Of a stretch of DNA of 61,947 bases, positions 6,571 through 58,506 are shown one piece after another; the first letter of the stretch is position 1, and each line of letters starts with the position of its first letter. The stretch spans positions 1 through 61,947 of the forward strand of contig JAFLVL010000002.1 of assembly GCA_022508325.1 (NCBI GenBank), read 5' to 3'. Under the pieces are notes generated by a model. The model was not told the origin of the DNA, made no database searches, and worked only from the letters and a program-made list of their open reading frames with translations. The position numbers and the translations under genes were made by a program. The DNA comes from Clostridiales bacterium. Its GTDB lineage: Bacteria; Bacillota; Clostridia; Christensenellales; CAG-314.

Positions 6571-6576
6571 GCTTAT

Positions 6577-7185: not shown

Positions 7186-7215
7186 AAAAGCTCGTATTAA
7201 CAAATACGAGCTTTT
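7186..7215. terminator. bidirectional rho-independent terminator downstream of the ynbB-like gene
   Basis: Stem AAAAGCTCGTAT / ATACGAGCTTTT with loop TAACAA, 26 nt beyond the stop at 7241. Confidence 0.6.
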
Positions 7216-7240
7216 AAAGCATCTGCAGTTTGATTCAATA

Positions 7241-40114: not shown

Positions 40115-40150
40115 AAATAATATGGCAGTAAATTTACCGCCATATTATTT
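40115..40150 (-). terminator. terminator hairpin at the end of the RloB-like gene
   Basis: Stem AAATAATATGGC / GCCATATTATTT (40115-40126 / 40139-40150) with a T-rich tail on the minus strand. Confidence 0.5.
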
Positions 40151-40764: not shown

Positions 40765-42040
40765 CTGCACTGTCCCCCAACAAAATTGAAATTAAGTCGG
40801 GCTCAGGTAATGCTCCAAGAGCACCTAATTTATACTTTTCTAATAAATCAGACTCTGAACGAATATTATCTTTATGTGCAGTATAGTCTTTTAGCGAATA
40901 AATATATGCACCTTCATCATTCTTTGCAGCAAACCAAATCTGATCTTTTCTGAATAATTTTTTGCAGTCCAATAAAGTGCCATCATGTGCTGAAAAAATT
41001 ATCTGCGCTTTAGTATTTAATTCGTTATTAAATAAAGATATTATTGCACGAGTTAATTTAAAATGAAGACTGCTATCTAGTTCGTCAACAATAAGAATTT
41101 TCCCTTCTTCAAGAGCTTCAATTATAAAGCTCGCCAAAGAAACCATTTTTTTCGTTCCAGTAGAATCATAGATAAGACTCTGTACAGGCTTGCCTTTATG
41201 AATTGACGTCAGCCTTAACATATCTTCAAATGCAACTGTAAGCTGCAAAACCTGTTCCTGTGGAGCCGAATACTGATAAATATTGGGATTTCTTTTTACA
41301 CTTTCATTATCGCTTTTTACATACTTATAATCTTCTATATCTAAATCCGCTAGTTTTATTAGCTCGACTATTCTATTACCTATTTCTTTATTCTCTTTTA
41401 AAGTCTGTATAGTTTTGCCAAGCGGAATATTATTTGCGTCCAACACTTCTATCTTAAAAGCAAAACTTCTTAAAATATTTTTGTAATATTCAATAATAGG
41501 AAATTTTTCACTATTAATTGTATATATCAAAATATTGTCAGGTGATACAGCTTTAAGCAATACATTTAATTCTTCATTATCAGCAAACTTATAAACATTA
41601 TTTACCATGTCTCTGATATAAATTTCTTTTTCACTTTCAGTTCCATATTTATCAACAGTAATTTCGGCAAGTCTCTCGTATACAAATCCTCTTTTATACT
41701 GATTTGTTATGGTTGAATCATATCCAAAATCATAACTATATGCCTTCCCATCAAATAAGAAAGAAATTCCAAGAAGGCACAAATTATTATTAGTAAATAG
41801 ATTGGGAGGAACTTCTGCTACAATGCCCAATAAAACATTGCGAATAGAATTTATTGCTCTTATAACACATGTTTTACCAACATTATTACCACCATATATA
41901 CAAGCTGCTTTTACTACATTAAAATTATTCTGCTGATATACATTAGAATAAAATTTTTTAATTCTCATATCTGCAATTAATGACATTTCTGTTTTATTTG
42001 CATAAACAAGAAAATTATTAACTCTTATACTTAAAATCAT
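40757..42040 (-). CDS. ABC/SMC-like AAA_21-type ATPase (RloA / AbiLi-like)
   Basis: Walker A 'GGNNVGKT' near the N-terminus and distal 'ILIVDELDSSLHFKL' (Walker B / D-loop) and 'FSAHD' (H-loop). The ATG at 42040 has a GAGG Shine-Dalgarno; the track start at 42109 is GTG. Confidence 0.7.
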   Translation of the reverse strand: MILSIRVNNFLVYANKTEMSLIADMRIKKFYSNVYQQNNFNVVKAACIYGGNNVGKTCVIRAINSIRNVLLGIVAEVPPNLFTNNNLCLLGISFLFDGKAYSYDFGYDSTITNQYKRGFVYERLAEITVDKYGTESEKEIYIRDMVNNVYKFADNEELNVLLKAVSPDNILIYTINSEKFPIIEYYKNILRSFAFKIEVLDANNIPLGKTIQTLKENKEIGNRIVELIKLADLDIEDYKYVKSDNESVKRNPNIYQYSAPQEQVLQLTVAFEDMLRLTSIHKGKPVQSLIYDSTGTKKMVSLASFIIEALEEGKILIVDELDSSLHFKLTRAIISLFNNELNTKAQIIFSAHDGTLLDCKKLFRKDQIWFAAKNDEGAYIYSLKDYTAHKDNIRSESDLLEKYKLGALGALPEPDLISILLGDSADE

Positions 42041-42069
42041 TTTAAACCTCGCTTTATATTTATATTTAT

Positions 42070-42098
42070 AGTATACCACTAAAATATTTTTTGTGCAA
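42070..42098 (-). promoter_or_regulatory. candidate promoter TTGCAC-N17-TATACT for the ATPase/RloB pair, with an inverted repeat over the -35
   Basis: The reverse complement of 42093-42098 is TTGCAC and of 42070-42075 is TATACT. GTGCAA-N5-TTGCAC inverted repeat at 42093-42109. Confidence 0.4.
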
Positions 42099-42162
42099 TA
42101 TTTTTGCACGAAAAATATTTATTTTTATTATTCCCTGAAACACTTGTTTTAAACTGACTACA

Positions 42163-42197
42163 AAAAAGTATCCGAAAACATCTCCCGGATACTTTTT
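42163..42197. terminator. bidirectional rho-independent terminator
   Basis: Stem AAAAAGTATCCG / CGGATACTTTTT with an 11-nt loop. It probably ends readthrough from the radical SAM operon. Confidence 0.6.
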
Positions 42198-42826
42198 AAC
42201 TCTGATACTTTGGTCGCAAAAGGACTTAGAAACTTTACAAGTAAATTATATCACAGCTTCATCTACTAATCAATGATTAACTTTTACTTATTTTGTCGAA
42301 TTATTATTTTTAAAGTAAAATAAATTTATAGTGTAAAAGAGTTTATTAATTAACTAATTACAGTTTACACAAACCAATACTATCTTTCAAACTTATAATT
42401 CAATATACTTTATTATGAAATATAAAATGTAAACAGAGTTTTCTGCTGAGATTCATCGTTATAATTTCATATACTAAAATCAGTACAAAATGGTTAAGCA
42501 AATAAAATATTTTTGATTTTATCCGATATTACATATTGACATCAATATGCGAAAATGTATATCTTGAATAAATCCAGTATCCTCGTCAATCTCATTCAAA
42601 GCACCTGATATATTCTTATGTATTAAAACATCTTTCATCAGATGAAAATCCTCATATTTAGTCTATCATATTTTAAAACTAATATTAACTGTTGTTTTTT
42701 ATGAATTACATGTACAGATTACGCGCTTTCAACTATAAAACTATTGTATCTCTGTTATTACGTACTTTAATAGCACAAAAAAGAGTTCCACTCTGTAAGC
42801 GTAGCACTCATATTTTGAGATAAATT

Positions 42827-43939
42827 CTATTTTGTTAAATTTTCTTTTATTATCTTTTGAGCGTAAGGATTTATATTACATAAATCAATTTCAGATAAGC
42901 GCACTTCAATGTTATCATAAACCATATTCGTAACATAACACTCAAAAGAACTTTTTCTTTGTAAACTTCCATCTAATAAACACGACGCATTACAGCCACT
43001 GTTACATTTAGTTATCCACTTGCATTTTTTACAACTAGTTATTCGGATTTCATTGTCTTTTAAGATATTAAGGAATGGCTTACTTAAAAAAGCTTCTCGT
43101 ACATCTGAAATCTCAAAAACATTAGCTAATTTAAATCCATCCTTTATTAATCGTCCACAAGGATAAATATCGCCATATGCATCTATAGCAATATATCTAA
43201 ACAAACATCCATGGTTTAGACATCCCGATTTAACGCCAAAATACTGGTGTAACAAATCTACACAAGACGCGACTCGAATGTTACATTTTTTATCATATAG
43301 CCAGTAATTAAACAATTCGATAAAATTATTTGTCCATTCTTCTTTACTAAGAGAAAAATCTTCATGTTGTTTGGCCGCACCATCAGGGAAAATATGGTTA
43401 AATTTTACAGGAATATTTCTTTGCTTGAAACACTCATACATATCCAATAAATGATTTATCGACTTAGATGAAACTGTAGCTAAGCAACTAAATGGCACCC
43501 CCTGTTCTTGCAATTTTGCAATTACTTTCTCTACTTTCTCCGTTTGTTGTCGCATATATGAATTATATGGTCCGTCATAGGATATAGATATGGATGTTTT
43601 GTTTGCTTGAAATAAGACTATAAACTCGTCAGTTAGAAGTGTCCCATTTGTCTGCAAATTAAACCTAAACTTGCAATCAAATTTATTCGAAAAAGTGTCA
43701 AACATTTTGTATGCCTTTTCGAAAAACTCAAATCCGGCTAACAGTGGTTCTCCTCCATGCCATATTATTTTTATTGTACTATAATTGGGCGCAAGAATAC
43801 TCAAAAATCTCTCAAGAGTACCTATTTCCATTATTTTTGTATCATATCCCGTATCTGCATGGTAACAATGCAAACATCTTAAATTGCAGGCGTTAGTGGG
43901 TTCTAATAATACGAGTATATCTTTGCTGAAATTCATCAT
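42827..43939 (-). CDS. radical SAM / SPASM-domain enzyme, anSME-like architecture
   Basis: 'CNLRCLHC' (CX3CX2C) at residues 18-25. C-terminal 'CLFRYIAIDAYGDIYPC' (CX10GX4C) and 'CKKCKWITKCNSGC' (CX2CX5CX3C) form the SPASM motif. Blocks 'GGEPLLAG.EFFEK', 'LQTNGTLL', 'SYDGP' and 'CKKCKW' resemble anaerobic sulfatase-maturating enzymes. No N-terminal RRE extension. Confidence 0.85.
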   Translation of the reverse strand: MMNFSKDILVLLEPTNACNLRCLHCYHADTGYDTKIMEIGTLERFLSILAPNYSTIKIIWHGGEPLLAGFEFFEKAYKMFDTFSNKFDCKFRFNLQTNGTLLTDEFIVLFQANKTSISISYDGPYNSYMRQQTEKVEKVIAKLQEQGVPFSCLATVSSKSINHLLDMYECFKQRNIPVKFNHIFPDGAAKQHEDFSLSKEEWTNNFIELFNYWLYDKKCNIRVASCVDLLHQYFGVKSGCLNHGCLFRYIAIDAYGDIYPCGRLIKDGFKLANVFEISDVREAFLSKPFLNILKDNEIRITSCKKCKWITKCNSGCNASCLLDGSLQRKSSFECYVTNMVYDNIEVRLSEIDLCNINPYAQKIIKENLTK

Positions 43940-43951
43940 TTTATTTTACCT

Positions 43952-44131
43952 TTAATATACTGGTAACTCTGAATATTCGGAGTACTCAGAATACTGTGAA
44001 TAATCAGAGTAATCGGCATCGCTATCAGAGTAATAAAAAATAAACGCATCATAATCCGTAATGGTCTGCGACAACAACCTTTTATATTTATCGTACAATT
44101 TAATTAGTTTTTGTTTATTCTTGTCATTCAT
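43952..44131 (-). CDS. unannotated 59-aa ORF, candidate radical SAM substrate peptide
   Basis: Hand translation: MNDKNKQKLIKLYDKYKRLLSQTITDYDAFIFYYSDSDADYSDYSQYSEYSEYSELPVY. The ATG overlaps the upstream stop by 8 nt (ATGAATGA), and the TAA lies 12 nt before the radical SAM ATG. It falls one residue below the 60-aa track cutoff. Confidence 0.55.
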   Translation of the reverse strand: MNDKNKQKLIKLYDKYKRLLSQTITDYDAFIFYYSDSDADYSDYSQYSEYSEYSELPVY

Positions 44132-45530
44132 GCGTTTTCACCTCGCTATATATAAATTTTATGAATGGATGCACCTCATATATATCTTTATCAATAATCC
44201 TTGTTTTCAAAATGATAGTCGAATCCAATAAAAACTGTTTTAATGTTTTTCGTTTGAAAGCTGACGTTCCAACGCCACCAGCCCTTGTACGTATCCTTAA
44301 TAACGAATCATCGAATTCTTTCTCACTCATCTTGCTACTAACGCTAATGATATATTTTTTTATATCTGCGATAGTATCTTTGTTGCGATGACAATCTGTG
44401 TATAGAGAAAGTGTCTCAAAATAGTCATCAATAATATCACGCTCTCTAGATTTAGCATTAGAGAATTCTTCATTGCGATAATATTTTTTTAGAGTCATTT
44501 CATCGTAACAATATTTATTTTCTATTCCACAAAAATTATTAGATGTGTTTAATGAATGAGATAATGGTAGAAAAATCCAATATGGATTATTGCCACTGTT
44601 GTCAATAACTTGTTTTAAAAATTCATTATTTGTTAGATGTGCTTTTTTTCCATTAAAATATAATGAACACTTACACTCCTCTTTCATTTTTTTGCATCGA
44701 TAAATTTGATTAGCGCATCCTTTGCCGTTTTTATGCTTTCTAGTATATGTTCTGATAGAACGAAGCATTATATCTAAGACTTCGTCTTCGCTTAATTGAG
44801 GCCAAGCATAGTTTAAGTCTTGAATCTTGCTTCGATATTCTACAGGCAACTTTCCACTGCCATTATCGAAACATTCAAATAAGCTTGTTTCAACTGCAAT
44901 GATAAATATTGGATTTCGGGATTTTAAAAAGAATTCAAAACATACTTTTCTAAATCTTGTAACTTGTTCACAACTATATTTGCTCCTTAATTTATTTCGA
45001 CAAAAACTATCGAAATTATCAACCAAATAAATAGTCTTTTGGTTTGTAGTCGGAAACATTTTTCTTAAAAACGCACCAATGATATTTCCATCATTTATCA
45101 TTTCCGACGAAAAACAGACATTTCCAAATTTTTCATTTGCATCAACTAATTGAACAGATTCACCATTCACACAAAAATTGTTAAGTCTTTCTCTTAATAA
45201 TTCCAAAAATGGTGATTTTCCAATATATCGCCCTCCATAAAAAAAGGTTTTATAACTACTGCCCAAAATACCCTCTAGAAGTTTGGCTCCACACATGCCT
45301 TTATTATCTACACAAACCCTAAGAACCTCTTGATATACAATCCTTTGCAATTCCACACAAGTATCATCAGCCAAATCAGCGTTTAGCGTATCTATGCCAT
45401 CTTTAGTCAAACTGTTAAAATACTTCAACATGCAATAGTACTTTATTTTTTTTGAAATTACTTCTGACTTGTTTGGTCTAACTACTTGTTCGTCCAATTC
45501 ATCAAGAGGTCTAAATCTTTTTTTACCCAT
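44124..45530 (-). CDS. P-loop NTPase of unknown family
   Basis: Walker A 'GGRYIGKS' (residues 99-106), Walker B 'TIYLVD' (166-171), Cys cluster 'CANQIYRCKKMKEECKC'. GAGGATGAG Shine-Dalgarno upstream. No family recognised. Confidence 0.55.
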   Translation of the reverse strand: MGKKRFRPLDELDEQVVRPNKSEVISKKIKYYCMLKYFNSLTKDGIDTLNADLADDTCVELQRIVYQEVLRVCVDNKGMCGAKLLEGILGSSYKTFFYGGRYIGKSPFLELLRERLNNFCVNGESVQLVDANEKFGNVCFSSEMINDGNIIGAFLRKMFPTTNQKTIYLVDNFDSFCRNKLRSKYSCEQVTRFRKVCFEFFLKSRNPIFIIAVETSLFECFDNGSGKLPVEYRSKIQDLNYAWPQLSEDEVLDIMLRSIRTYTRKHKNGKGCANQIYRCKKMKEECKCSLYFNGKKAHLTNNEFLKQVIDNSGNNPYWIFLPLSHSLNTSNNFCGIENKYCYDEMTLKKYYRNEEFSNAKSRERDIIDDYFETLSLYTDCHRNKDTIADIKKYIISVSSKMSEKEFDDSLLRIRTRAGGVGTSAFKRKTLKQFLLDSTIILKTRIIDKDIYEVHPFIKFIYSEVKTHE

Positions 45531-45557: not shown

Positions 45558-46241
45558 TTATTTCCTGCTTATTAATTGCTTTAAAATAAAAATGTTTTCC
45601 ACCATACCCTTGATATAGACCTTAAGTGCTGTATAATTATCACTGCTATTGTCTATTCTCTCGTTAAATTCTTCAATATAGGATTCCACCTTATGTAGCG
45701 TAACCGAAATTTGACCTTTCTTTTGTTTTTTTCTCATCCAGTTCTGAAAAACAATGTACCTAGGAATATTATAAAATATACTATCACTTTCAACCGAACA
45801 ACAAACGTTACGTATGCTTTCTATACCTAACCCGTTTTTAATGTTATTGTAAATAACTTTATATTGTTCATCATCAAGTTGCGGAATTATTTTAAAATTA
45901 GGTATAGTCTTACCAAACATTTTTTTAATTAAGACATCTAACTCCTCATTAATCACGCAGACGAGCGATTGATACTTATCCAATGTTTTCCATTGATGAA
46001 TGTAGGTAGCTTCAAATATAAAGCCAATACAGACACCTGCAAAACTTCCAACGAAACTCGATAAAACATTAATTACATAGTCATCTTTCAAGGCAAGAAA
46101 CTTAAGTTTCAAAAACATTTGCATCAATAATTTTATTAAAATCGGTGCAATACACAAGCATAATGCAAATATCAGAAATGATTTTAAAATAATTACAAAT
46201 CTATGCCAACCGACTGAATAATATTTGTTATCTTTATCCAT
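45558..46241 (-). CDS. 2-TM membrane protein of unknown function
   Basis: Two N-terminal hydrophobic helices ('FVIILKSFLIFALCLCIAPILIKLL', 'VINVLSSFVGSFAGVCIGFIF') followed by a roughly 140-aa soluble region. First gene of the four-gene operon. Confidence 0.5.
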   Translation of the reverse strand: MDKDNKYYSVGWHRFVIILKSFLIFALCLCIAPILIKLLMQMFLKLKFLALKDDYVINVLSSFVGSFAGVCIGFIFEATYIHQWKTLDKYQSLVCVINEELDVLIKKMFGKTIPNFKIIPQLDDEQYKVIYNNIKNGLGIESIRNVCCSVESDSIFYNIPRYIVFQNWMRKKQKKGQISVTLHKVESYIEEFNERIDNSSDNYTALKVYIKGMVENIFILKQLISRK

Positions 46242-46392: not shown

Positions 46393-47460
46393 CTATGCAA
46401 TTTTAATTACTCTATTAATGTCATCTCCTATGTCTCCCAACATCATAGAAGTCACTGATTGTAACTGCCTAACCCCTTCTATGCTTTCAGAACTACTTAG
46501 TTGATCGCCTAGCGGATCTAAAAGTTTACTAAAATTCTTTTCATGTCCATAAAATTCAAGTGTTTCATTTATTACCTTTAAAAGCGTCAGAGGGCTTTCT
46601 CCAATCCAATATTTATTAGTAGGAATAGTATATAAAAGCGAACTTATTGCATAACTGCTAAAATTAATTTTTGCACCTAGTTCTCTTTCAGCATCTGTTT
46701 TAATTGTTTTCAAAAGTCGTATCGCTCGTTTAAATACACCCCCTGTAAAAGAATCTTTGTTCTTTAACAAATCATTAAACCAGAAAGGGTAGTTTAATAT
46801 TCTCTCGTTATTCCTCTTGTTATAAATTTGAATTCCTCTATATATTGCATTGTTTGTTTCGGCATATCTATTACTGTTAAACCAATTCGCTGGCACCACG
46901 TCAACTTTTACAATTAAAGAACCTCCTGATAATGCAATACTTTTTGCTCCACTATTATCAACATGTACAGAAGACATCACTTTTTTTATTTGTCCCACGC
47001 AGTTATTCCGTAATTCTGCCAAATCATTTTCAGGCACTCCTTTGTAAGGATACTGTGGCCTCTGGGGATGTTCAAGAGTTTCATATAAACCAATAATTGT
47101 CAGCAAATCAACATCACTATTATGTCTAATGTGAGTATTATTGGATACTGATCCTTGGTATTTGAACTCGAGAGGAGCAGAATAATAAATGTTATCATTC
47201 ATCTGTTTTAGAACATTTTCGACACTCTTTCTACAGCTAATAATTTGTTGTGTATAATTTTGTGCTACAGGTAGCATGCCGCCGACTATATACCTAATGA
47301 GCGAACTTTCTTGCACCCACTGGTACTGCCTTGCTTGATTAAAACTCTCATACGCTGCAGCATTATGCCGTAATTCTTGTTCCTCAAGTAAAATTCTTTG
47401 CGCTGAACCGAACTTTCGAAAATCCATTTCTTTTAGTAATTTATCATAATCAAAATTCAT
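46393..47460 (-). CDS. CD-NTase / SMODS-type nucleotidyltransferase (CBASS cyclase)
   Basis: Pol-beta NTase motif 'YQGSVSNNTHIRHNSDVDLL' (G-S ... D-x-D) and third acidic residue in 'VKVDVVPA', as in cGAS/DncV-like enzymes. GGAG Shine-Dalgarno inside the end of the upstream gene. Confidence 0.7.
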   Translation of the reverse strand: MNFDYDKLLKEMDFRKFGSAQRILLEEQELRHNAAAYESFNQARQYQWVQESSLIRYIVGGMLPVAQNYTQQIISCRKSVENVLKQMNDNIYYSAPLEFKYQGSVSNNTHIRHNSDVDLLTIIGLYETLEHPQRPQYPYKGVPENDLAELRNNCVGQIKKVMSSVHVDNSGAKSIALSGGSLIVKVDVVPANWFNSNRYAETNNAIYRGIQIYNKRNNERILNYPFWFNDLLKNKDSFTGGVFKRAIRLLKTIKTDAERELGAKINFSSYAISSLLYTIPTNKYWIGESPLTLLKVINETLEFYGHEKNFSKLLDPLGDQLSSSESIEGVRQLQSVTSMMLGDIGDDINRVIKIA

Positions 47461-47461
47461 T

Positions 47462-48061
47462 TTATTTCTCCTGTTTTATTAATTTAATCGTACCATATCT
47501 TGGCCTATCTACTGGATAGTTGTAATACTTGCCATTAATAGAATTGTTATCAAACGTGATTGAAGCTGTACCATCATGTTTATGTAAAGCTTTTAAATTT
47601 CCATTTGGGGCATTCATATAACAATAATACAAATAGATACTCCCATCGTCTGATACATCGATATGCGCCATATAACTCTGCGAATATGAATTATCTGTTT
47701 TTAATGAAATCAGTATTTTAGACCATGTTTGTTTAATCGTTACAGTTCCTTTCCAGTCTGAAGTTTTGAAGTTTGATTTGCCGTCACACAAATATTGACC
47801 ACTTATTTTTTTACTTTTTATGCCGGGTATTATTTGCCATAACCATCTGTCGAATATAAAATACAATGCTGCAAATATAGATGAAAAACCAAATCCGATA
47901 ATCAAAATAAAAGTTATAAAAGGTGATCCAAGATTATCTGACAGCCTTCTTACAATAAAATCACACAACGGGGTTAAAACCAAATTAAGAATCATTGATA
48001 GTATTGTAATAATAACAATACTTAGTCTTCGATGACATTTATTTGATGTATACTTATGCAT
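47462..48061 (-). CDS. 2TM plus beta-rich effector, Cap15-like (CBASS effector)
   Basis: Two N-terminal TM helices followed by a roughly 125-aa beta-strand-patterned domain ('GTVTIKQTWSKILISLKT', 'SIYLYYCY', 'GTASITF', 'GTIKLIK'). Its stop is 1 nt from the NTase ATG. Confidence 0.5.
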   Translation of the reverse strand: MHKYTSNKCHRRLSIVIITILSMILNLVLTPLCDFIVRRLSDNLGSPFITFILIIGFGFSSIFAALYFIFDRWLWQIIPGIKSKKISGQYLCDGKSNFKTSDWKGTVTIKQTWSKILISLKTDNSYSQSYMAHIDVSDDGSIYLYYCYMNAPNGNLKALHKHDGTASITFDNNSINGKYYNYPVDRPRYGTIKLIKQEK

Positions 48062-48294
48062 TAAACTTCACCCTCTAGCTTTTCTCATGCAGACATAGCA
48101 ACTCTATATTTAATGATCTGCACCAGACACAAATTAACATTTTGTTAAGACATTTCTCGCACCAATCTCAATTAGATATAGCTGACAATGAGATTCAATG
48201 GATTGTCTTTTTTTGTTATTTATTTAATATACCTGGTATAGTATAAAAAAGTTAAGTTTATTTAAAAATTAAGAAAAATTTTTATTAAAACTAA

Positions 48295-48486
48295 TCACTG
48301 CACCATTTTGTTTCTACGAATTAGCTAAATAAAGGTGCGGATCTACGTTCTGTTCAAGCAATACTTGCTCAAACTAGCGTAGCAACCACTCAAATTTATA
48401 CAGAAGTTAGTACAAACCGTAAAAAACAAGTTTTAAAAAAAATTATAGAAATAAGTTGTGATAATATTTTGAAATTTATTGACTGA
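48295..48486 (+). pseudogene. C-terminal remnant of a tyrosine recombinase/integrase
   Basis: Translates to SLHHFVSTN*LNKGADLRSVQAILAQTSVATTQIYTEV... versus the family pattern LRH-FAT-LL--GADLR-VQ-LLGH-S--TTQIYTHV. It has an in-frame TAG, Arg to His and His to Gln substitutions at catalytic positions, and no upstream gene body. Confidence 0.7.
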
Positions 48487-48735
48487 AAATTATTTGGCAC
48501 AATTTGGGCACAAAGTTGGCAGAAAAATGCGGATGCTTTTTATTTTGAAGCCTGCTATAATATGGACAAACAAACGGTCAAATCAAGTTTGACACTCAAT
48601 TTGACCGTTTGGATTTAATAATAGTTATTTGTTATATTTTTCACGTTTGTACTTTATTATTTGATAATCATGCATCGCTAACGTAAAAGAAAAGGAGGTC
48701 ATTAAACGTTAGCAAAATACAATGTATAGTAATAT

Positions 48736-49982: not shown

Positions 49983-52040
49983 TTAAAAACCGATTCTGGC
50001 GCGTTTCGGAACGCTATTTACGACAAACTCCTTGTCTGCGCTTGCGTGTTCAAAATCATCGCGAGTAAGTACAATGTCGCTCTTTCCGCCAAGTTGACAA
50101 CGCATTGCCGCCTTTGCCCACGTACGTTCGAACAAATTGCGCACGTAACGGGCGTTTGAGAAATCCTTTGAGGAGAGTGTCGAGTCTGGCAAATCCATAA
50201 AAAATTTACGCGCCGATTCAAAGAGTCCTTCGTCACATTTGAATTTGTCTTTGACCATAGATACGAAAATTTCATAAAGCTGTTCGCGCGTGAAATTGGG
50301 GAATTCAATCGTATAGGGCATTCTACTCGCAAGTCCTAGATTGCCGTTCATCAGCTTGTTCATTTCGTCGGTATAGCCCGCCAAAATGACTACAAAGTCG
50401 TTGCGATGATTTTCCATTTCTGCAATCAAGGTATCTAACGCTTCTCTGCCGTAGTCCTTATTGTCGGGGTCATTACTGCGATAGAGAGTATAAGCTTCGT
50501 CAATGAACAGCACCGAGCCATAAGCGTCGCGACAAATGCTTGAGGTTTTGGGAGCAGTTTCGCCGATATATCTTCCGCAGAAATCTCTGCCTGCATACTC
50601 GAAGAATGCGCCGACACGCAGTATTCCCTTTTCCTTCAAAATCTTGCCGATAATACGCGCAACGGTCGTTTTGCCTGTGCCGGGGTTACCCACAAAACGC
50701 ATGTGAATGCATGGACGGTCAGCCGAACCGCTTTTGACTGAGAGTTCTATTTGAGCGATTATCTCCTCTACTCTCTGCTTGATACCGTCCACGCCAACTA
50801 GCTTGTTGAGTTGCTCTGCGCCGGATAAATTGGCATCGCTTATGTCGCTGCAAAGTAATTTTGCATCATTTACGCCAATCTGATTGCTTTTTTCCGTTTT
50901 ATGCGAATTGGCGATATGCTTTTGGTACACTAGCTCACGCACGACTTTTTTTACAGTTTTGATACCGTAAAACTTGCCGTCGCTCTTTTCTTCAGAGATA
51001 CGATCGAAGAAAAATTTCCAGGCAGAGTTCGTCATGGCGAAATTGTAATGTTTCAACTCTGCTTCTGCGCACGCTTTAACCTCGTCTTGGCTGAGCGGCG
51101 GGAAGGATACCGTCTTGACGCTCACCAAGTCGGAAAGTGAATACTTGATTCTTGCGAGAACGTCTTTGTCAACAAATGGCACTCTAAACGCTAAAATGTG
51201 ATCGTTAGCACACTTCTCAACCGTGCGTAAAAACTGCTTGAAGAAGCGGCTATTGGTCTTGTCCATCCATTCACTGATATCGACACAAACAACCTTTACG
51301 CTATCGGGAGCGCCGCTTTCGACAGCGTGACGAGCATCTTCAAAGGGCTCGGCGCTTTCGCGATATACGTCCAGGCGCGCCTCGCGTACCGGACGTGATG
51401 ACATTTCGCAGAGATGAAGCTCGCCTAGCAACTCAGCCAGTAGATTCAAATATGTAGAAAGTCCGCAACCGTCGCCAATTGAGAACAGATAACACTGATT
51501 CATCAATACTTCGTAGGTCTTAGTGCGCTTGATTTCATCTGAAATGCTGGCGATTTCCTTGCAGAGCGCCTTGAATTCAGTCGCCCCAACAAGTCCGCTG
51601 ATTTTATCAAGGACCGTAGGAGTTTTTTCCGAAGTAGTTGCCGTTGAGGGAGCGCATCCGTCTGAGCCGCTTACTCTGCGAGCAAACTTTTCAAATTCGT
51701 CAAGGTCGTCATCGGACTTTTCGGGCGGGTTTGCTGTGGTTGAAACGTCGCCGCCTTTGAAATCCACTTCTTGAAATACCAATACGTCATAGGCTGATAC
51801 TTCTGGATAGCGGACGGCAAACAAATCCATAATAGAGCTTACTAGTTCGCCACAATTCCCAACAGTCGTGTCAAAAAGTACCGATACTGACGTAAAAGAG
51901 CTATAATATAAAGTCAAATTCTCGAATTTGGCCACTTCTGCCTTTATAATGTCGGTAGGCAACTGCGCATCGAATTGATGCTTCAACACCCAATTCCTGT
52001 CCAACCCAATGTTCAAGATTTTCTTCTGATGTTCAGCCAT
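49983..52040 (-). CDS. AAA+ ATPase of the SpoVK/CbbX family with a long N-terminal extension
   Basis: C-terminal module with Walker A 'GNPGTGKTTVARIIGKIL' and Walker B 'VLFIDEAY'. The first roughly 430 aa have no motif I recognise. The ATG at 52040 has GGAG 6 nt upstream. Confidence 0.7.
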   Translation of the reverse strand: MAEHQKKILNIGLDRNWVLKHQFDAQLPTDIIKAEVAKFENLTLYYSSFTSVSVLFDTTVGNCGELVSSIMDLFAVRYPEVSAYDVLVFQEVDFKGGDVSTTANPPEKSDDDLDEFEKFARRVSGSDGCAPSTATTSEKTPTVLDKISGLVGATEFKALCKEIASISDEIKRTKTYEVLMNQCYLFSIGDGCGLSTYLNLLAELLGELHLCEMSSRPVREARLDVYRESAEPFEDARHAVESGAPDSVKVVCVDISEWMDKTNSRFFKQFLRTVEKCANDHILAFRVPFVDKDVLARIKYSLSDLVSVKTVSFPPLSQDEVKACAEAELKHYNFAMTNSAWKFFFDRISEEKSDGKFYGIKTVKKVVRELVYQKHIANSHKTEKSNQIGVNDAKLLCSDISDANLSGAEQLNKLVGVDGIKQRVEEIIAQIELSVKSGSADRPCIHMRFVGNPGTGKTTVARIIGKILKEKGILRVGAFFEYAGRDFCGRYIGETAPKTSSICRDAYGSVLFIDEAYTLYRSNDPDNKDYGREALDTLIAEMENHRNDFVVILAGYTDEMNKLMNGNLGLASRMPYTIEFPNFTREQLYEIFVSMVKDKFKCDEGLFESARKFFMDLPDSTLSSKDFSNARYVRNLFERTWAKAAMRCQLGGKSDIVLTRDDFEHASADKEFVVNSVPKRARIGF

Positions 52041-52129
52041 ATTCATCTCCAAAACTGTATTTTGCGGTAAAAGTGTTGCATTTGTATAACTAGCACAGCG
52101 TGTTCAGGCTATATTATTGATGAGATTAG

Positions 52130-53845
52130 CTATTTTTTCAGATTATTTTTGTAATTGGCAGACCAATCAAGTAGCTCCTTTGCATTGACAATTGCGTGTT
52201 CGCCAACGCTACCCATTAGGCGCGAAACTTCTCTTGCGCGCTGCTCGTAGTCCGTCAATACATCTACTGCCGTATAAGTCCTGCCATCTTTTTCGTACTT
52301 TCGTATATACAAATTGACGTCAGCCATAGCTGCAATCTGTGGAAGGTGAGTGATTACCACGCATTGATAACCGTCATTTTTATTAGTTGAAACATTTGCC
52401 AGCTTATTGGCAACCATTTGCGCCATATTGCCGGAAATTCCCGTATCGATTTCATCAAATACCATAGTTGGGATTTTTTCCGCAAGAGCCGTAATATTCT
52501 TTACTGCCAGCATAAACCGCGACATTTCGCCACCGGAAATGACCTTCGAGAGAGGTTTTAAGGGTTCGCCTACGTTTGCCGACATCAAAAACTCCACCTT
52601 ATCAAAACCGTCTGCAGACGGCGAAGCGGAATACTCGTCATAGCTCGGCTCGTCGTTAAATTGCACTGTGAAATTCGTTCCGCGCATACCAAGATCATTC
52701 AGTTCCTGCATTATTTGCGCAGCAAGCTTCTGTGCGGTATCTCGCCTCATTGCCGACTTTTTTTGAGCTAGCTTGTACATTTGCGTCACAACCTTGCGCT
52801 TTTCAGCATTGAGCTGCTCGATACGTTCGCTGGAATTCAAGAGGTTGTCGTATTGCTTTTGGGCAGATTCAAGGAACTTCAAAACATCGGCAACACTGCC
52901 GCCGTATTTGCGCTTCAGTTGGCGTATTTTTTCCAGACGCCCTTCCATTTTGTCGACTTCCGCTGGGCTGAAATCCGTAGCCGAAAGAACGCTATCCAAC
53001 TGATCTGCCACGTCGTCAATCTCCAAACGCACTGACAGCAACCGCTCGGATAATTCGTCGGCACCATCCTCCAAGTTTGAGATAGAGCGCAACAAATTGA
53101 CACTTTGCGAAACTTGCGCACTAGCACCCTGTTCACCCTGCAATAATGCGACTGTTTGGTTAAGCGCAGTACTGATCTTCTCTACATTGACCATGCGTTT
53201 ATGCATAGAAAGCAGCTCGTCCTCTTCTTCCTCGCTGAGGTCGGTAGCAACAATCTCGTCGATTTGGTATTTCAGTATATCAAGCAGTCGTTCGCGCTCG
53301 GCGTCACTTCCCCCAAAACTCTTCAATTCTTTGTTAATTGCCGTGAGTTGTGGGTATAATTCCGTTTTCAGCTGTATGTCGATTCCCCCGAAATCGCAAA
53401 AGGCGTCGAGAACCGAAAGCTGATTTTTTTCGTTCAAAAGAGCCAAGTGCTGACCTTGCCCAAAGATATCCACAAGCTCCGCGCAAACTTCCTTGAGTAT
53501 CGCCTGTGTGGTAGTCTTGCCTTGTATACGAATTTCGTTCTTGCCCGACGTTGACATTTTGCGATAAATCAATATCTCGCAGTCATTTCCATAGCCGTAT
53601 TCGTCGAGCTTAGAGAGCACAGCTGAATGTGGGTCGACCTCAAAAAGCGCCGTAACTTCGGCATAATCCTGACCGTACTTGATAAGAGTTTTGTCTGCTC
53701 TATCGCCCAAAACAAAAGCGAGCGAATCGATAATGATAGATTTACCACTACCTGTTTCGCCGGACAATACTGTCAAACCCTCTTGAAACTCAATGTCAAG
53801 ATGGTCAATGAGCGCTATGTTGTTAATCGTCAATTGTCTAATCAT
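52130..53845 (-). CDS. recN: DNA repair protein RecN
   Basis: SMC-like architecture: Walker A 'GETGSGKS', a long coiled coil, C-terminal 'SGGEMSR' signature and 'MVFDEIDTG' Walker B. Confidence 0.9.
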   Translation of the reverse strand: MIRQLTINNIALIDHLDIEFQEGLTVLSGETGSGKSIIIDSLAFVLGDRADKTLIKYGQDYAEVTALFEVDPHSAVLSKLDEYGYGNDCEILIYRKMSTSGKNEIRIQGKTTTQAILKEVCAELVDIFGQGQHLALLNEKNQLSVLDAFCDFGGIDIQLKTELYPQLTAINKELKSFGGSDAERERLLDILKYQIDEIVATDLSEEEEDELLSMHKRMVNVEKISTALNQTVALLQGEQGASAQVSQSVNLLRSISNLEDGADELSERLLSVRLEIDDVADQLDSVLSATDFSPAEVDKMEGRLEKIRQLKRKYGGSVADVLKFLESAQKQYDNLLNSSERIEQLNAEKRKVVTQMYKLAQKKSAMRRDTAQKLAAQIMQELNDLGMRGTNFTVQFNDEPSYDEYSASPSADGFDKVEFLMSANVGEPLKPLSKVISGGEMSRFMLAVKNITALAEKIPTMVFDEIDTGISGNMAQMVANKLANVSTNKNDGYQCVVITHLPQIAAMADVNLYIRKYEKDGRTYTAVDVLTDYEQRAREVSRLMGSVGEHAIVNAKELLDWSANYKNNLKK

Positions 53846-53869: not shown

Positions 53870-54322
53870 TTACTTGCACGCCTCGTCAATTCTACTTTTG
53901 ACTGCTTCGGCATCGTCGGCATTTGAACAGACAACGAGTACGCAACTCCTGTCTGCCAATATACCTACCGCTTCTGTTATAGACATCTGCTCAATTGCTC
54001 CCGACACAGCTTGGGCACTGTCGCTAATAGTTTTAACGACCACGAGATTACCTGCCGTAACTACTGAGATCACAGCCTCACGCACGACGTTCATCAATTT
54101 GTCGGGTACCCTAGCATCTATAGTTTGCTTGGTAACGTATTTGTACTTATTGTCGGCGGTGAGAGTTTTTATCAGTCCTAACTCTTTAATATCCCGAGAA
54201 ATAGTCGCCTGCGTAATGTCAAATCCAGCCAAACGCAGTTCGCTGACAAGCTCGTCCTGCGTTTCAATATCACGCGACGAAATAATGCTTAAAATTTTAG
54301 ATTGTCTAGATGAACGCGACAT
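53870..54322 (-). CDS. argR: arginine repressor
   Basis: 'ETQDELVSELRLAGFDITQATISRDIKELGLIK' wHTH and a C-terminal oligomerisation domain. The ATG at 54322 (AGAGG Shine-Dalgarno) is preferred over the GTG at 54349. Confidence 0.85.
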   Translation of the reverse strand: MSRSSRQSKILSIISSRDIETQDELVSELRLAGFDITQATISRDIKELGLIKTLTADNKYKYVTKQTIDARVPDKLMNVVREAVISVVTAGNLVVVKTISDSAQAVSGAIEQMSITEAVGILADRSCVLVVCSNADDAEAVKSRIDEACK

Positions 54323-54500
54323 ACATGCCTCTTTTTGCCACTTTTTCACTTATTTCAATATATTATGTCTATCATAGTATTCTATATTTTGTTAAAAACG
54401 AGAATAATTCCGCAATTCTCAATGGCAAAATAGCTATTTTAGCCCAAAATCCATTAAAATAAGGTCTGTTGTATAATTATATATTATTTTTTGTATCAAT

Positions 54501-56303
54501 TCAAGCCTTTGATAGCAATTCGCTAGCTACTTTGAATACGCCGTCAAAATCCAGACCGTTTTGAAGCAATTGCTCTGCTACTTTCGCATGTTTGACAAAT
54601 TGGTCGTCAACGCCCAAACATTTCACAGATATTTCTCGGTTATTTCTAGCAAAATACGCAACAACGCTTTGCCCAAAACCGCCCTGCAAAACATTTTCTT
54701 CCAAAGTCAAGATGTTGCGGGTCTGTAATCCATTCAAAAGCTGTTCGTCCAATGGTTTGACGGTCGTCACTGCCACCACGTCTACGCCGTCCAGTGCGTC
54801 AGCAACCTTCAAAGCTGTACAAATCATATTATCGCCGACAGCAAATATTGTCAATTTGCTATTCTCGACCTTTCTAAGCACCTTCCAACGTCCGTCAAAA
54901 TGGCGTTCTTCATTGCATAAACATTTGGAGTACCTAATCGCGACAGACCCCTTCTCGTTTAGGCTCGTTTCAATCATCTGAGACAATTCGGAATAGGTCG
55001 AGGGCGTCCATATCTTGATATTTGGAATTTGATTTAGATATGACAAGTCAAAAAGTCCTTGGTGAGTCTTACCGTCGTCACCTACAAAGCCTGCTCTGTC
55101 AATCAAGAATGTCACAGGTAGGTTTTGCAATGCCACGTCATGCAATATTTGGTCATAACTACGTTGCAGAAAGGTCGAATATATCGCCACAAAGGGTCTT
55201 GCGCCGCCTTTGGCCAAACCGGCAGCAAATGTCACGGCATGTTCCTCGGCAATTCCCACGTCGAAGAATCTGTCTTCAAATTTATCTTTAAAAGCGTCCA
55301 GTCCTGTTGCGCGTGCCATTGCGGCGCATACTGCCACAACGTCAGAACGCTCTTCTGCAAGTCGACACAGCGTATCGCTAACTACCTGCGCGCATTCCAA
55401 CCCGACGTCTACTCCTGCTCTATTGACAGCGTGGTACGTTTCGGGATCTTGCTCGGCAGGGAGATAGCCTTTGCCTTTTTTCGTCACAATATGTAGTAAG
55501 GTTGGTTTGCTTACGTTGTTCTTTATTTTCGTGAGGTAATAAACGAGGTCCTTGACCTCATTGCCGTCGATAATTCCAACGTATTTCAAATCAAACGTAT
55601 CAAAATAGCTGTTGCGAACGTAACCAAGCTTTGCGCGACGCTTACACCACCTCAAGAAACCGTACATTGGCTTGCCGACAAGCGGAATTGCCGTGAGAAA
55701 GCGTTTCAAACGCTCCTTGTTGCGGTCGTACTTACCCACGCGGAGCTTTGACATATTGAGAGTCGCCGAACCAACATTGTCGCTTATGGACATATTGTTG
55801 TCGTTGAGTATTATCAACATATTCGTATCATTCACGTTATTCAACGCCTCGTAGGTCATTCCACACGTCATTGAGCCGTCGCCAACGACTGCGACGACCT
55901 TATAATCCTTGCCAAGAGTATCGCGCGCCTTAGCCAGTCCTAACGCTGCAGAAATTGCGGTACCTGCATGCCCTGTATTAAAGGTGTCTACTTCGTTCTC
56001 TTCGCAATCGGGAAAACCGCTGATACCTCCACTGCTTCTCAATGAAGAAAAATTCTCACCCCTAGAGGTAAGAATTTTGTGAGCGTAACATTGATGACCT
56101 ACGTCCCACACAATTCTGTCGTCTTCGCCAAAAACGTAATGAAGAGCGACGGTAAGTTCGACAACCCCCAAATTGCTTGCCAAATGTCCGCCGCTCTGCC
56201 CGACCTCGGCAATGAGTTTAGCGCGAATGTCGGCGCACAGTTCAGGCAACTGTTTGACGTCAAGTCTTTTCAAATCTTGTATAGTTTTTATTTGTTCAAG
56301 CAC
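54501..56303 (-). CDS. dxs: 1-deoxy-D-xylulose-5-phosphate synthase
   Basis: ThDP motif 'GDGSMTCGMTYEALNN' and transketolase-like domains. GTG start 1 nt after the upstream stop, with a GAAGGA Shine-Dalgarno. Confidence 0.92.
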   Translation of the reverse strand: MLEQIKTIQDLKRLDVKQLPELCADIRAKLIAEVGQSGGHLASNLGVVELTVALHYVFGEDDRIVWDVGHQCYAHKILTSRGENFSSLRSSGGISGFPDCEENEVDTFNTGHAGTAISAALGLAKARDTLGKDYKVVAVVGDGSMTCGMTYEALNNVNDTNMLIILNDNNMSISDNVGSATLNMSKLRVGKYDRNKERLKRFLTAIPLVGKPMYGFLRWCKRRAKLGYVRNSYFDTFDLKYVGIIDGNEVKDLVYYLTKIKNNVSKPTLLHIVTKKGKGYLPAEQDPETYHAVNRAGVDVGLECAQVVSDTLCRLAEERSDVVAVCAAMARATGLDAFKDKFEDRFFDVGIAEEHAVTFAAGLAKGGARPFVAIYSTFLQRSYDQILHDVALQNLPVTFLIDRAGFVGDDGKTHQGLFDLSYLNQIPNIKIWTPSTYSELSQMIETSLNEKGSVAIRYSKCLCNEERHFDGRWKVLRKVENSKLTIFAVGDNMICTALKVADALDGVDVVAVTTVKPLDEQLLNGLQTRNILTLEENVLQGGFGQSVVAYFARNNREISVKCLGVDDQFVKHAKVAEQLLQNGLDFDGVFKVASELLSKA

Positions 56304-56304
56304 G

Positions 56305-56958
56305 TTATCCTTCTTTGCGGAAAATACTCAATACTTTTGCCACACCAAAAATAATCTTATTGGCTTGTTTGACAGCGATTCCTTTCCCTGCTGCTTTCAA
56401 CGTTATTGTAAGGGTGGAAATCACTGCATATATTGCAACAGATATTACAAAGCTAATCTTTGCATCCAAAGACGCTTCCGTCGCAAAAAACACCAAGGTC
56501 GCAGCGCTGATACCGGACACTATGCCACACACGTCTCCCACTATGTCGCAGCATACTGACGAAACGACATCGCTCTTTTGAGACAGTTTGACTGCGAGCT
56601 TGGCACCGCGCACCTTCCTCGACGCCATTGCCAGAAACGGCTGTATGTCACACGCTGTAGAAGCCGTACCGATAATGTCGAATACGACGCCCAACAGTAA
56701 AATGATGACAGTAAGTATCGTTGCCAGCCACCAACTAGCATCTCCTAATACCAACGTAGATGCGGCGTTAACTGCCGCCGACAAAACGAGAGTAATCAAT
56801 AGAGCTTTCAACGGCCACAGATTACGTTTCTTTTTCTTCTTGTCAGAACGTTCTTTATCTTTCTTTTTGTATTGTTCCTTTGCTACTTGTTCCGCAGTTT
56901 GACTGTCGGAAGATTGCACTTCTTCTTCCTGTCGCGGAACAGAATCTGTATTCTTCAT
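56305..56958 (-). CDS. oapA: OapA-like small membrane protein (OLE-associated protein A candidate)
   Basis: 217 aa with a Lys/Glu-rich N-terminus and about 4 TM helices. It lies between the OLE-like RNA locus and dxs, the published oapA position. Confidence 0.55.
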   Translation of the reverse strand: MKNTDSVPRQEEEVQSSDSQTAEQVAKEQYKKKDKERSDKKKKKRNLWPLKALLITLVLSAAVNAASTLVLGDASWWLATILTVIILLLGVVFDIIGTASTACDIQPFLAMASRKVRGAKLAVKLSQKSDVVSSVCCDIVGDVCGIVSGISAATLVFFATEASLDAKISFVISVAIYAVISTLTITLKAAGKGIAVKQANKIIFGVAKVLSIFRKEG

Positions 56959-56996
56959 AATTCTCCACTACAAGCAAGTTTTCTCAATTTTATAAT

Positions 56997-57616
56997 AAAA
57001 AAAGGTGGTGACTCGTCAGATAAACCTTACGGCATAGGTTCAGTAGGATTTCCCAAGCAGAAACTCCCCGTCGCCGAAGAAGCAGTTTCCTTTTAATTCC
57101 GCCTATGCGGTGTCACCACTCGCATAACTGAATCGCCACTTAGTCCGTACTATAATCTCTGACAAGCCTGAATTGCAGTCTAGAAGATTTCCTTTACAGA
57201 AACCGTCGTACTTTAGTTTCTTTTGCAAAATTCATTTCGTAAAGCAATCGGAATTGCGTCGTAGGCCAACAAACACAACCCGTTCAGTACTCCCAAAATT
57301 TCACTCAAAACAAGCTACACTGTACACAGCTTTTTATTCACCGCATAGCAGGTTTAACCTCAGAGAGTAATCACTTATTTATTAGGCAACTACCCTGTTG
57401 AGTCTCCACGAATATTGGGGATAGAGCGTATGCCATTACACCTTACCCAATATCCTTAACTCCCAGCACAAGCCCCCGTTTGGGCAACGAAAGCAAGCAC
57501 AAGAAGCTTCATCGATGTGCTCGTCGACGGTCTTTTAGGCCCGCCTTCAATACGTCAGTTTCTGACTAGAATACTGCACCACCAAGTTTTTATTAAGTTT
57601 TCGAGCCAAAAGCTCA
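56997..57616 (-). ncRNA. ole: OLE (ornate, large, extremophilic) RNA candidate, about 620 nt
   Basis: 738-bp gap between oapA-like and ispA with no credible ORF. Promoter at 57623-57651. The 3' end is closed by a stem (57112-57119 pairs with 57004-57011) followed by U7 (plus-strand A-run 56997-57003). Many internal hairpins. The nusB-folD-xseA-xseB-ispA-[RNA]-oapA-dxs...recN neighbourhood matches the published OLE locus. Confidence 0.65.
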
Positions 57617-57622
57617 TTTTGT

Positions 57623-57651
57623 ATTGTACCACAAACCTTCGCAAAATGCAA
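57623..57651 (-). promoter_or_regulatory. sigma-A promoter TTGCAT-N17-(TGG)TACAAT for the OLE-like RNA
   Basis: The reverse complement of 57646-57651 is TTGCAT and of 57623-57631 is TGGTACAAT (extended -10). Spacer is 17 nt. Confidence 0.55.
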
Positions 57652-57696: not shown

Positions 57697-58506
57697 TTAC
57701 TTTTGCCTTGACAAGTTCGCGTCGCAGAATTCCTTGATATAAGTGAGGTCGTAAGGAAGACGGTCGCACGCAGCCTTGATTTCATCGCTTAACTTTTCGG
57801 CGTATTCGCGTAGCTCACGTCGGCTAAAAACGTCCAAAAACGACTTTTCGCACTTCTCGGAATCGAGTAGGTCGTCAATTACCTGATAGCAAATTCCGAT
57901 TTTACACGCAATATTGTCAAATACCGACACTTCCTCGTCTGTCGCCCCGCCAACAAGTGCTCCGCATACGAGCGCCGCTCTGATGAGTGTTCCGGTCTTG
58001 TTGAGAGCAACCTCTGTCGCCTGCTCCACCGTCGTAGTCTCGGTGAAAAGGTCCAACGACTGTCCGTGCACAAGCCCATGTATACCACTCATTTTGAAAA
58101 GGAACACGCAGGCCGCCTGATAACGCTTGTTAGATAGCGGTCCTGCAAGAACCGTCTCAAAAGCAAGATTCAACAGCGCGTCTCCCGCAAGAACCGCAGA
58201 CGCCTCGCCAAATTGCATGTGACAGGAGCGTTTTCCTCTACGGAAATCATCGTTATCCATACAGGGTAAATCATCGTGAATGAGCGAATAGGTATGGACG
58301 AATTCCAACGCCGCGGCAAGCTTCTTTGCGCCCTCATTGACGAAATTGCCTACTGCTTTTGCTGTAGAGAGCAACAGCATCGGGCGAAAGCGTTTTCCAC
58401 CGCTGTTAAGGCTGTATTCCATCGCCGATAGCACTTTGTCGTGAGTTTTAGGCATATTTTGCTTTAAGATTTCATCAATATAATCTACGGTAATATTAGT
58501 TTTCAT
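57697..58506 (-). CDS. ispA: polyprenyl (farnesyl/geranylgeranyl) diphosphate synthase
   Basis: First and second Asp-rich motifs 'HDDLPCMDNDDFRRGK' and 'VIDDLLD'. Confidence 0.85.
   Translation of the reverse strand: MKTNITVDYIDEILKQNMPKTHDKVLSAMEYSLNSGGKRFRPMLLLSTAKAVGNFVNEGAKKLAAALEFVHTYSLIHDDLPCMDNDDFRRGKRSCHMQFGEASAVLAGDALLNLAFETVLAGPLSNKRYQAACVFLFKMSGIHGLVHGQSLDLFTETTTVEQATEVALNKTGTLIRAALVCGALVGGATDEEVSVFDNIACKIGICYQVIDDLLDSEKCEKSFLDVFSRRELREYAEKLSDEIKAACDRLPYDLTYIKEFCDANLSRQK

Follow-up and report, generated by a model that had tools for sequence, protein, structure and literature searches.

We analysed a 61,947-nt stretch of DNA (the window) of Clostridiales bacterium GCA_022508325.1, contig JAFLVL010000002.1, in which an OLE RNA gene, ole, and its protein partner gene, oapA, lie between ispA and dxs. 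Positions are those of the window in forward-strand numbering, and the RNA gene, its parts and the genes of the same block are all on the minus strand. Family searches identified the upstream neighbour as ispA (57697–58506), which encodes a polyprenyl / farnesyl diphosphate synthase. On the other side of the RNA gene lies oapA (56305–56958), encoding a four-helix membrane protein of 217 aa, and then dxs (54501–56303), whose GTG start lies 1 nt past the oapA stop codon. The spacing between ispA and the 217-aa open reading frame (ORF) is exactly 738 bp. Three ORFs touch this gap and all are short (two on the plus strand, of 74 aa and 65 aa, and one of 51 aa that overlaps the ispA end); given their position within or across the match to a structured RNA described below, they were treated as non-coding. 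An earlier reading made from the sequence alone (the original prediction) had described a 738-bp gap with no credible ORF, and its length was exact.

The whole window was scanned against all 4227 Rfam families, and OLE was the only match. The OLE model RF01071 matched 56989–57598 with 445.9 bits against a gathering score of 50 (E 1.1e-127), covering model positions 1–616 of 616 without truncation. The OLE RNA that had been proposed for this gap is thus matched end to end by the covariance model on the minus strand, far above the gathering score. Folding of the predicted 620-nt transcript gave a minimum free energy of −195 kcal/mol and a z of −2.95 (20 shuffles), and recovered the closing stem P1 and the 3′ domain. 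Taking these results together with those on the protein and the locus below, we concluded, with a probability of roughly 95%, that a textbook OLE RNA gene of full length occupies the gap and is followed by its partner gene oapA. This is the identification of a well-known RNA class, already described elsewhere, and not of a new kind of element.

The stems were named after PMC9723947, PMC12265935 and PMC7936274 and were mapped from the Rfam alignment. P1 is formed by the 5′ strand GGUGGUG (57577–57583) and the 3′ strand CACCACC (57004–57010), which pair from 57577 with 57010 to 57583 with 57004. Folding found this pairing independently; it is present in 60–66 of the 72 aligned OLE sequences, and its sequence is almost invariant. 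Directly inside P1 are the 5′ strands of P2 (CAGUAUUCUAG, 57576–57566), P3 (CAGAAAC, 57564–57558) and P3.1 (GACGUAUU, 57556–57549). As read from the sequence, this segment (57549–57576) pairs with 57176–57212, where the 3′ strands of P3.1 (AGUACGAC), P3 (GUUUCUG) and P2 (CUAGACUG) are found, with the P10 hairpin (57184–57194) placed between the 3′ strands of P2–P3.1. A compensatory change in P3 was observed in three relatives (L009, L018 and L022; CAGGGUG / CCUCCCUG).

The elements to which proteins bind in other OLE RNAs were then located. The P4a hairpin (57526–57545, model positions 54–73) corresponds to one of the two OapA-binding regions of OLE (PMC12265935). The kink-turn region (57454–57516) is composed of J4a/5 (AUCGAUGAAG), the P5/P5.1 hairpin and J5/6 (UUAAGG); its bases are the same as the consensus CGAUGAAG / UUAAGG and are invariant in 12 relatives, and the kink-turn is known as the OapC site (PMC9723947). 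In P6 (57410–57455), the site of bS21 (PMC12054373), the conserved GGG/CCC pairs are present. P7 (57358–57403, model positions 198–241, 44 nt) and P8 (57320–57351, model positions 249–277, 32 nt) were matched without deletion and are of full size, as is the long arm of P9 (57216–57311, about 96 nt). The palindromic loop GGCC of P9 (57267–57264), which serves as a kissing-loop dimer contact (PMC12286853), is invariant among the relatives. The P13 hairpin (57104–57126), UAUGCG-A-GUG[GUGA]CACCGCAUA, carries a GNRA tetraloop, GUGA, and a single bulged A, and P13 is the OapB site (PMC7936274). A second GNRA hairpin, P14.1 (57064–57082), has the loop GCGA.

In total, stems P1–P10 and P12–P15 were found, and only the small, weakly conserved P11 was missing. 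P11 was absent across the whole clade and in other groups as well, and we therefore dismissed its absence as a special feature of this RNA. Apart from an anti-Shine-Dalgarno mimic in P6, all the protein-binding and dimerisation elements appear to be present as predicted sites. Because P7–P9 were matched without deletion and P13 is intact, the RNA belongs to the full-length OLE class and not to variant 1 or variant 2.

The 217-aa protein had been predicted to be OapA-like, with four transmembrane segments. Its identity was established through homologues, motifs, fold and synteny instead of a direct family match. A database search returned 318 homologues, and some of the close ones carry PF01595 (CNNM) or bear the name CorB. 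Clostridium and Acetivibrionales orthologues gave sub-threshold matches to PF01595, such as have been published for OapA, and the window protein gave none even at E 10. Along all of its conserved part it aligns with a Clostridium argentinense protein that follows a 523-bit OLE (38% identity over 194 residues, E 1e-42), so that the predicted homology to OapA is borne out by a protein that is itself adjacent to OLE. The DxxxD motif, which distinguishes OapA from CNNM domains (PMC11332333), reads DIVGD (residues 138–142) in the window protein and DVVGD in that of C. argentinense. D138, I139, G141 and D142 are invariant in 49 relatives, and the FD..GT block within FDxxGTA (93–99) is invariant in alignments of 15 and of 49. 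A basic loop (111–130) lies between helices 2 and 3; its R114 and G118 do not vary, and K115 and K120 are the same in all of 15 relatives and at least 90% conserved in 49. These basic residues would be placed on the cytoplasmic face.

Four hydrophobic segments were recognised by hydropathy, and an AlphaFold2 model placed helices at 48–73, 76–102, 131–161 and 166–197 (mean predicted local distance difference test score, pLDDT, 74). No CBS or CorC domain was found in the protein by family searches. When the model was compared with the Protein Data Bank (PDB) by Foldseek, the top four matches were the archaeal CNNM protein MtCorB (7M1T and 7M1U; probability 0.77–1.00, identity 12–15%), at weak scores (E 0.04–0.3, best TM-score 0.49). 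7M1U is also the published best structural match for H. halodurans OapA. The modelled structure is consistent with, rather than conclusive for, a CNNM-like fold. The N-tail (residues 1–46; 56821–56958) begins with MKNxDxVP, in which M1, V7 and P8 do not vary and the conservation of K2, N3 and D5 is 90% or higher. A variable acidic stretch follows, and then a Lys-rich run (the Lys-rich stretch spans residues 30–45) before NLWP; the tail is disordered in the AlphaFold2 model and possibly has a role in RNA contact or sorting.

The linkage of OLE and OapA was examined in relatives of OapA, with one genome taken per species and 80 loci kept. A full OLE was directly upstream of oapA in all 17 loci scanned with Rfam. 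With an nhmmer profile built from the OLE sequences of the clade, 78 of the 80 loci showed a same-strand OLE directly upstream of the oapA homologue; contig ends cut several of these loci short. The two without an OLE match (L051 and L053) are metagenome-assembled genomes (MAGs) of Mycoplasmatota and Bacilli, and a further locus, L074, gave only a partial match; these three may carry the diverged variant 2 form. The bit score in the window (446) was similar to those of its relatives, and the scores in Clostridium and Acetivibrionales were 523 and 528, respectively.

On the minus strand of the window, the genes are arranged as Asp23-like, nusB, folD, xseA, xseB, ispA, OLE, oapA, dxs, argR (53870–54349) and recN (52130–53845), which is the order described in the original prediction. 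This neighbourhood is reportedly canonical for OLE (Puerta-Fernandez et al. 2006), which accords with the synteny measured here. Across the clade, the order xseA-xseB-ispA-OLE-oapA-dxs-argR-recN was kept, with argR directly after dxs. The absence of tlyA and nadK between dxs and argR/recN had also been noticed correctly: the dxs–argR spacing in the window is only 151 bp, and among roughly 50 larger ORFs scanned in the window no tlyA-type or nadK-type family was matched, nor did the intergenic gaps yield either gene. In Clostridium loci the dxs–argR interval is about 1.65 kb longer, in agreement with two extra genes (tlyA and nadK-type). The absence was observed throughout the clade and is therefore a lineage trait. 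In six relatives (L029, L035, L037, L039, L015 and L020), oapA was followed by argR and recN with no detectable dxs in between, and the module of this clade therefore does not always include dxs.

MAGs of uncultured Clostridia, recovered from the gut of rabbit, mouse, chicken and human, are the closest genomes. The DNA runs in which words of the locus occur are gut metagenomes of rodents and rabbit. The best database match to OapA has 81% identity, and no identical protein was present in the database. The window encodes the sporulation proteins SpoIVB, SpoVK-like, SpoVAC/AD/AEB, YunB and SpoIIIAH-like, which fits the published correlation of OLE with sporulation genes (PMC11332333). The host belongs to uncultured spore-forming gut Clostridia, with its nearest named relatives in Christensenellales, CAG-314, and so agrees with OLE carriers in general, which are Bacillota and typically anaerobes and/or spore-formers. 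Candidatus Fimimonas is the GTDB genus CAG-1435 of the family CAG-314, Christensenellales (PMC8035907). NCBI files Ca. Fimimonas (L018 and L037) and 'Corallococcus sp.' (L017 and L039) under Myxococcaceae despite their placement in Christensenellales by GTDB, and this filing appears to stem from the mislabelled 'Corallococcus sp. CAG:1435'; the names of matches can mislead for this reason. A literature search for OLE in Christensenellales found nothing relevant.

We next considered how the RNA is transcribed. Upstream of ole, a −35 box TTGCAT (57646–57651) and an extended −10 box TGGTACAAT (57623–57631; TG at 57631–57630 and TACAAT at 57628–57623) were recognised. TTGCA and TGnTAnAAT are conserved at the same positions in most of the aligned relatives. 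A search of the window gave a single occurrence of the exact pattern and, when one mismatch was allowed, three matches, with 0.1 expected by chance. The original prediction had written this near-consensus promoter as TTGCAT-N17-TGGTACAAT. Its elements and their place were right and its notation was not, as 17 nt is the distance from hexamer to hexamer and the literal string is TTGCAT-N14-TGGTACAAT. Most likely, 57651–57623 is a sigma-A-type extended −10 promoter that belongs to ole itself. Transcription is predicted to start near 57616. The predicted minus-strand transcript, from about 57616 to 56997, has a length of about 620 nt, in agreement with the figure originally given.

Free-energy folding indicated a small hairpin, GAGC-UUUUG-GCUC (57603–57615), on the 5′ side of the region covered by the Rfam model, where the transcript is predicted to begin. 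Its pairing is kept among relatives despite a varied stem (GGGC/CCCC, GUGG/CCAC, GGACG/CGUCC and others), and a few relatives lack it. The hairpin is followed by a conserved A-rich linker (ACAACUAAAUAAAA-like) down to 57584, and the leader from the −10 box to P1 is about 30 nt in this clade. Clostridium loci have no leader hairpin, and there the −10 box adjoins P1. The leader may be removed from the transcript, because the RNA contigs of one relative begin near P1.

At the other end of the gap, the closing stem (GGTGGTG/CACCACC) and the T7 that follows it were found where they had been described. The resulting U7 run (56997–57003) comes directly after P1 and is a likely point of partial termination. 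It is kept in the closest relatives and lost in L009, L018 and L022. A simple terminator scan did not call the U7 run, and the stem in front of it is the long-range P1, which closes about 570 nt; since some relatives also lack the U-run, we rejected it as a classic intrinsic terminator. We infer termination at this point with caution, because no local hairpin precedes the run and it has been lost in some relatives. The oapA start lies 38 nt past the U7 run, with a ribosome-binding site GGAGAA at 56966–56961. A promoter scan found no convincing promoter for oapA itself; given this and the short distance from the U-run, oapA is therefore most likely translated from read-through transcripts.

Expression was followed indirectly, through relatives. 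The exact organism of the window was poorly represented in all runs, the best of which shares 26% of the sampled words. Contigs at least 99% identical to the window were few and confined to OLE. In several metatranscriptomes, contigs 90–99% identical to the window covered the OLE part alone and none of ispA, oapA and dxs. In one metatranscriptome of a mouse-gut relative (L008, OapA 63% identical), the OLE contig had a depth of 1500–2000, compared with 33 for ispA and 34 for oapA-dxs, an excess of about 50-fold by contig word depth, which is a crude measure of abundance. Low-depth contigs of the same relative bridged ispA to OLE, and OLE to oapA and dxs. H. halodurans OLE is transcribed from its own promoter, has 5′ ends near P1 and has a half-life of about 3 h (PMC3413148). 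The pattern in the relative matches that of H. halodurans, namely a very abundant RNA with its own promoter and some co-transcription, and this indirect evidence speaks in favour of the discrete transcript expected from the original prediction.

One RNA run, X32, contained a 170-nt contig (depth 33) that joins the OLE 3′ end to the 5′ end head-to-tail. In the RNA sense it reads ...CACCACC-UUUU-A-UU-GGUGGUGCAG..., that is, four U after P1, one extra A, and then two bases before P1; 167 of its 169 aligned bases match L008. The joint connects 57000–57055 to 57473–57585 of the window (3915–3970 to 3386–3498 of L008). It could be imagined that OLE of this clade is made with the 5′ leader hairpin, which is later removed, and that a fraction is circularised by joining of the U-tail after P1 to the 5′ end. 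The X32 contig is the whole of the support for such a circular form, which we consider highly improbable. No head-to-tail joint was found in seven runs from six other studies, one of which had an OLE depth near 2000, and a second run of the same study (X38), with OLE contigs on the same reference, contained none. The only entry for the library type of that study is 'OTHER'. Because other studies lacked the joint and because of this library type, a library artefact is more likely and probably explains the contig: P1 holds the two ends together, and ligation or template switching could then join them. We therefore did not take the joint, which comes from a single run of a single study, to show that the RNA is circular; a literature search on circular OLE also found nothing relevant. 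Whatever its cause, the joint puts both ends of the RNA no more than a few bases from P1, in agreement with 5′ rapid amplification of cDNA ends in H. halodurans.

No evidence against the OLE and oapA identification as such was found, and several observations weigh against parts of the reading. The 217-aa protein had no match in Pfam and NCBIfam at E 0.001, and lowering the threshold to E 10 gave only chance-level matches to membrane proteins. The fold matches to MtCorB were weak, the model on which they were based having a mean pLDDT of 74. The CCUCCU anti-Shine-Dalgarno mimic in P6 of H. halodurans is not kept, the corresponding sequence in the window being CCCCAAUAU. The lack of a local hairpin before the U7 run, together with the loss of the run in some relatives, counts against termination there. 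A search of the larger ORFs and intergenic gaps found none of OapB, OapC/YbxF, bS21 and MpfA encoded in the 62-kb window. The strong expression signal, besides its crude measure, came from relatives and not from the exact organism. Finally, the ion-transport mechanism considered below is a hypothesis.

A mainly cis-acting role was weighed against that of a stable particle RNA. In this case, the region would be a 5′ leader of the oapA-dxs mRNA, such as a giant riboswitch or attenuator, and the absence of a convincing oapA promoter, the start of oapA 38 nt past U7 and the relative's contig running from the OLE 3′ end through oapA into dxs would suit it. The U-run after P1 could then be a conditional terminator, but it is missing from some relatives. 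Moreover, a leader is difficult to reconcile with an OLE depth some 50-fold above the depth of oapA-dxs in the same run and with other RNA runs that hold OLE alone, both of which point to a discrete, accumulating RNA. In H. halodurans, too, OLE runs as one stable band, its half-life is about 3 h, and OapA, OapB and OapC are bound by it in trans (PMC3413148, PMC9723947). A mainly cis-acting leader is thus very improbable.

We dismissed almost entirely the idea of a decaying remnant, or of a reduced OLE of the kind seen as variants 1 and 2 in gut TANB77/RF39, whose functions have been lost. The host indeed belongs to an uncultured gut Clostridia lineage, P11 is missing and the P6 anti-Shine-Dalgarno mimic has not been kept. 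However, P7, P8 and P9 are of full size and the GNRA loop and bulge of P13 are intact, which rules out a reduced gut variant. The score of 446 bits is like that of the relatives and not far under those of Clostridium (523) and Acetivibrionales (528), P11 is lacking clade-wide and in other groups, and the orthologue in a relative is highly expressed. A different question is whether OLE is a ribozyme, so that the particle would catalyse a membrane reaction and OapA would be a mere anchor. This idea is favoured by the discoverers of OLE (PMC11332333), and the size, the ornate structure, the many invariant unpaired nucleotides and the long invariant joining regions of the RNA agree with it. No catalysis, splicing or self-cleavage was found for OLE, however (PMC3413148), OapA resembles CNNM Mg2+ transporters, and both the anticorrelation of OLE with MpfA and the Mg2+ sensitivity on OLE loss (PMC11332333) argue in another direction. 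We regard a ribozyme as unlikely.

Here, we propose a model for the full-length OLE RNA and OapA of this locus. It builds on the family membership of the RNA and the protein, their architecture, their tight linkage and the high, discrete expression of the relative's orthologue. The ole gene would be transcribed from its own extended −10 promoter, with low-level read-through from ispA, as a primary transcript of about 620 nt that begins with the small leader hairpin. The mature RNA would probably start near P1, as in H. halodurans, and end in the U7 run, at which leaky termination would allow read-through to supply the oapA and dxs mRNA. As judged from orthologues, the RNA would form two domains and dimerise through conserved loops including GGCC of P9, and OapA, a four-helix CNNM-like protein with DxxxD, would bind it cooperatively and hold it at the membrane. 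Among small proteins, OapC would be bound at the kink-turn, bS21 at P6 and OapB at P13, again as in orthologues, and the particle may help the cell under stress from short-chain alcohols, cold, excess Mg2+ and poor carbon sources. What the model says of localisation at the membrane, partner proteins, dimerisation and phenotypes under stress is carried over by analogy from the H. halodurans and Clostridium literature. OLE has been described to dimerise through conserved loops in a membrane model (PMC12286853, PMC12265935), and in H. halodurans it is localised to the membrane by OapA and may cross the membrane (PMC12265935).

As to what the particle does, OapA may be a transporter module for divalent cations (Mg2+), with the RNA doing the regulatory work of the cytoplasmic CBS/CorC domains found in MpfA/CorB-type proteins and gating or tuning ion flux. 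This speculative proposal is the mechanism that we favour, and it may well prove wrong.

OLE is among the largest and best-conserved bacterial noncoding RNAs, and recent structures suggest that it may span the membrane. The present locus is a standard member within reach of routine Rfam annotation, and by itself adds nothing to the question of OLE function. It indicates that full-length OLE, and not a reduced variant, is retained in uncultured commensal gut Clostridia, with very high expression of the orthologue in a relative. The clade offers many diverged OLE sequences usable for covariation work, and its 5′ leader hairpin and OapA N-tail could inform studies of processing and assembly.

Other features of the window were also recorded. 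A tRNA scan of the whole window found none. On the minus strand, a type I CBASS (cyclic oligonucleotide-based antiphage signalling system) pair lies at 46393–48061, with an oligonucleotide cyclase (46393–47460, PADLOC E 8e-84) and a two-transmembrane (2TM) / Cap15-type effector (47462–48061). The adjoining ORFs at 44124–45530 and 45558–46241 had no family match. AbiLi (40757–42109) and AbiLii (40150–40770), a radical SAM protein with weak viperin-like matches (42827–43939) and a HipA-like protein (kinase; 38369–39508, PDC-M03A) are likewise encoded on the minus strand. The CBASS, AbiL, viperin-like and HipA-like genes form a defence island at 38.4–48.1 kb, between spoIVB and housekeeping genes. 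Three stretches of about 640–720 bp each (42110–42826, 48062–48735 and 6601–7240) contain no credible ORF, Rfam match at the gathering score or tRNA, and 6601–7240 adjoins a phage-type integrase gene (5503–6600). A 689-aa AAA+ protein (49983–52052, minus strand) matches SpoVK / CbbX / EccA-type ATPases in its C-terminal half, below trusted cut-offs, and its N-terminal approximately 400 residues had no family match.

The locus was finally compared with known systems. MpfA / CorB / CNNM proteins (PF01595; MtCorB, 7M1T and 7M1U) provide the best structural matches for the OapA model, at weak E, and the literature relates OapA distantly to the transmembrane domain of CNNM proteins (PMC11332333). 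In contrast to CNNM, the window protein has four helices and not three, carries DxxxD, has no CBS-pair / CorC and shares 12–15% identity; with so weak a fold match, it therefore falls outside the CNNM family proper. With known OapA it shares the four helices, DxxxD, the basic, presumably cytoplasmic loop, a gene placed right after ole and possibly a CNNM-like fold. It differs in having no PF01595 match and a longer N-tail, disordered in the model, of which only the Lys-rich part aligns with the Clostridium protein.

OLE variant 1 (TANB77) and variant 2 (RF39) were reported from uncultured gut bacteria, with P7–P9 shortened or absent and the OapB site lost (Fernando and Breaker, PMC11332333). 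The window resembles them in its host, an uncultured gut member of Bacillota known from metagenomes, and differs from them in its intact P7–P9 and P13. Unlike known OLE, the window RNA has no P11, a leader of about 30 nt with a covarying hairpin, which Clostridium does not have, and no anti-Shine-Dalgarno mimic in P6, and unlike the extremophile carriers of OLE, its host is a gut commensal. In all other respects compared, it agrees with the OLE RNAs of H. halodurans, Clostridium acetobutylicum and C. botulinum (cryo-EM, PDB 9LCR), having the same stems, joining sequences, P1 closure, kink-turn, GGCC and GNRA loops, and it shares with them the position within ispA-ole-oapA-dxs and a promoter of its own just upstream.

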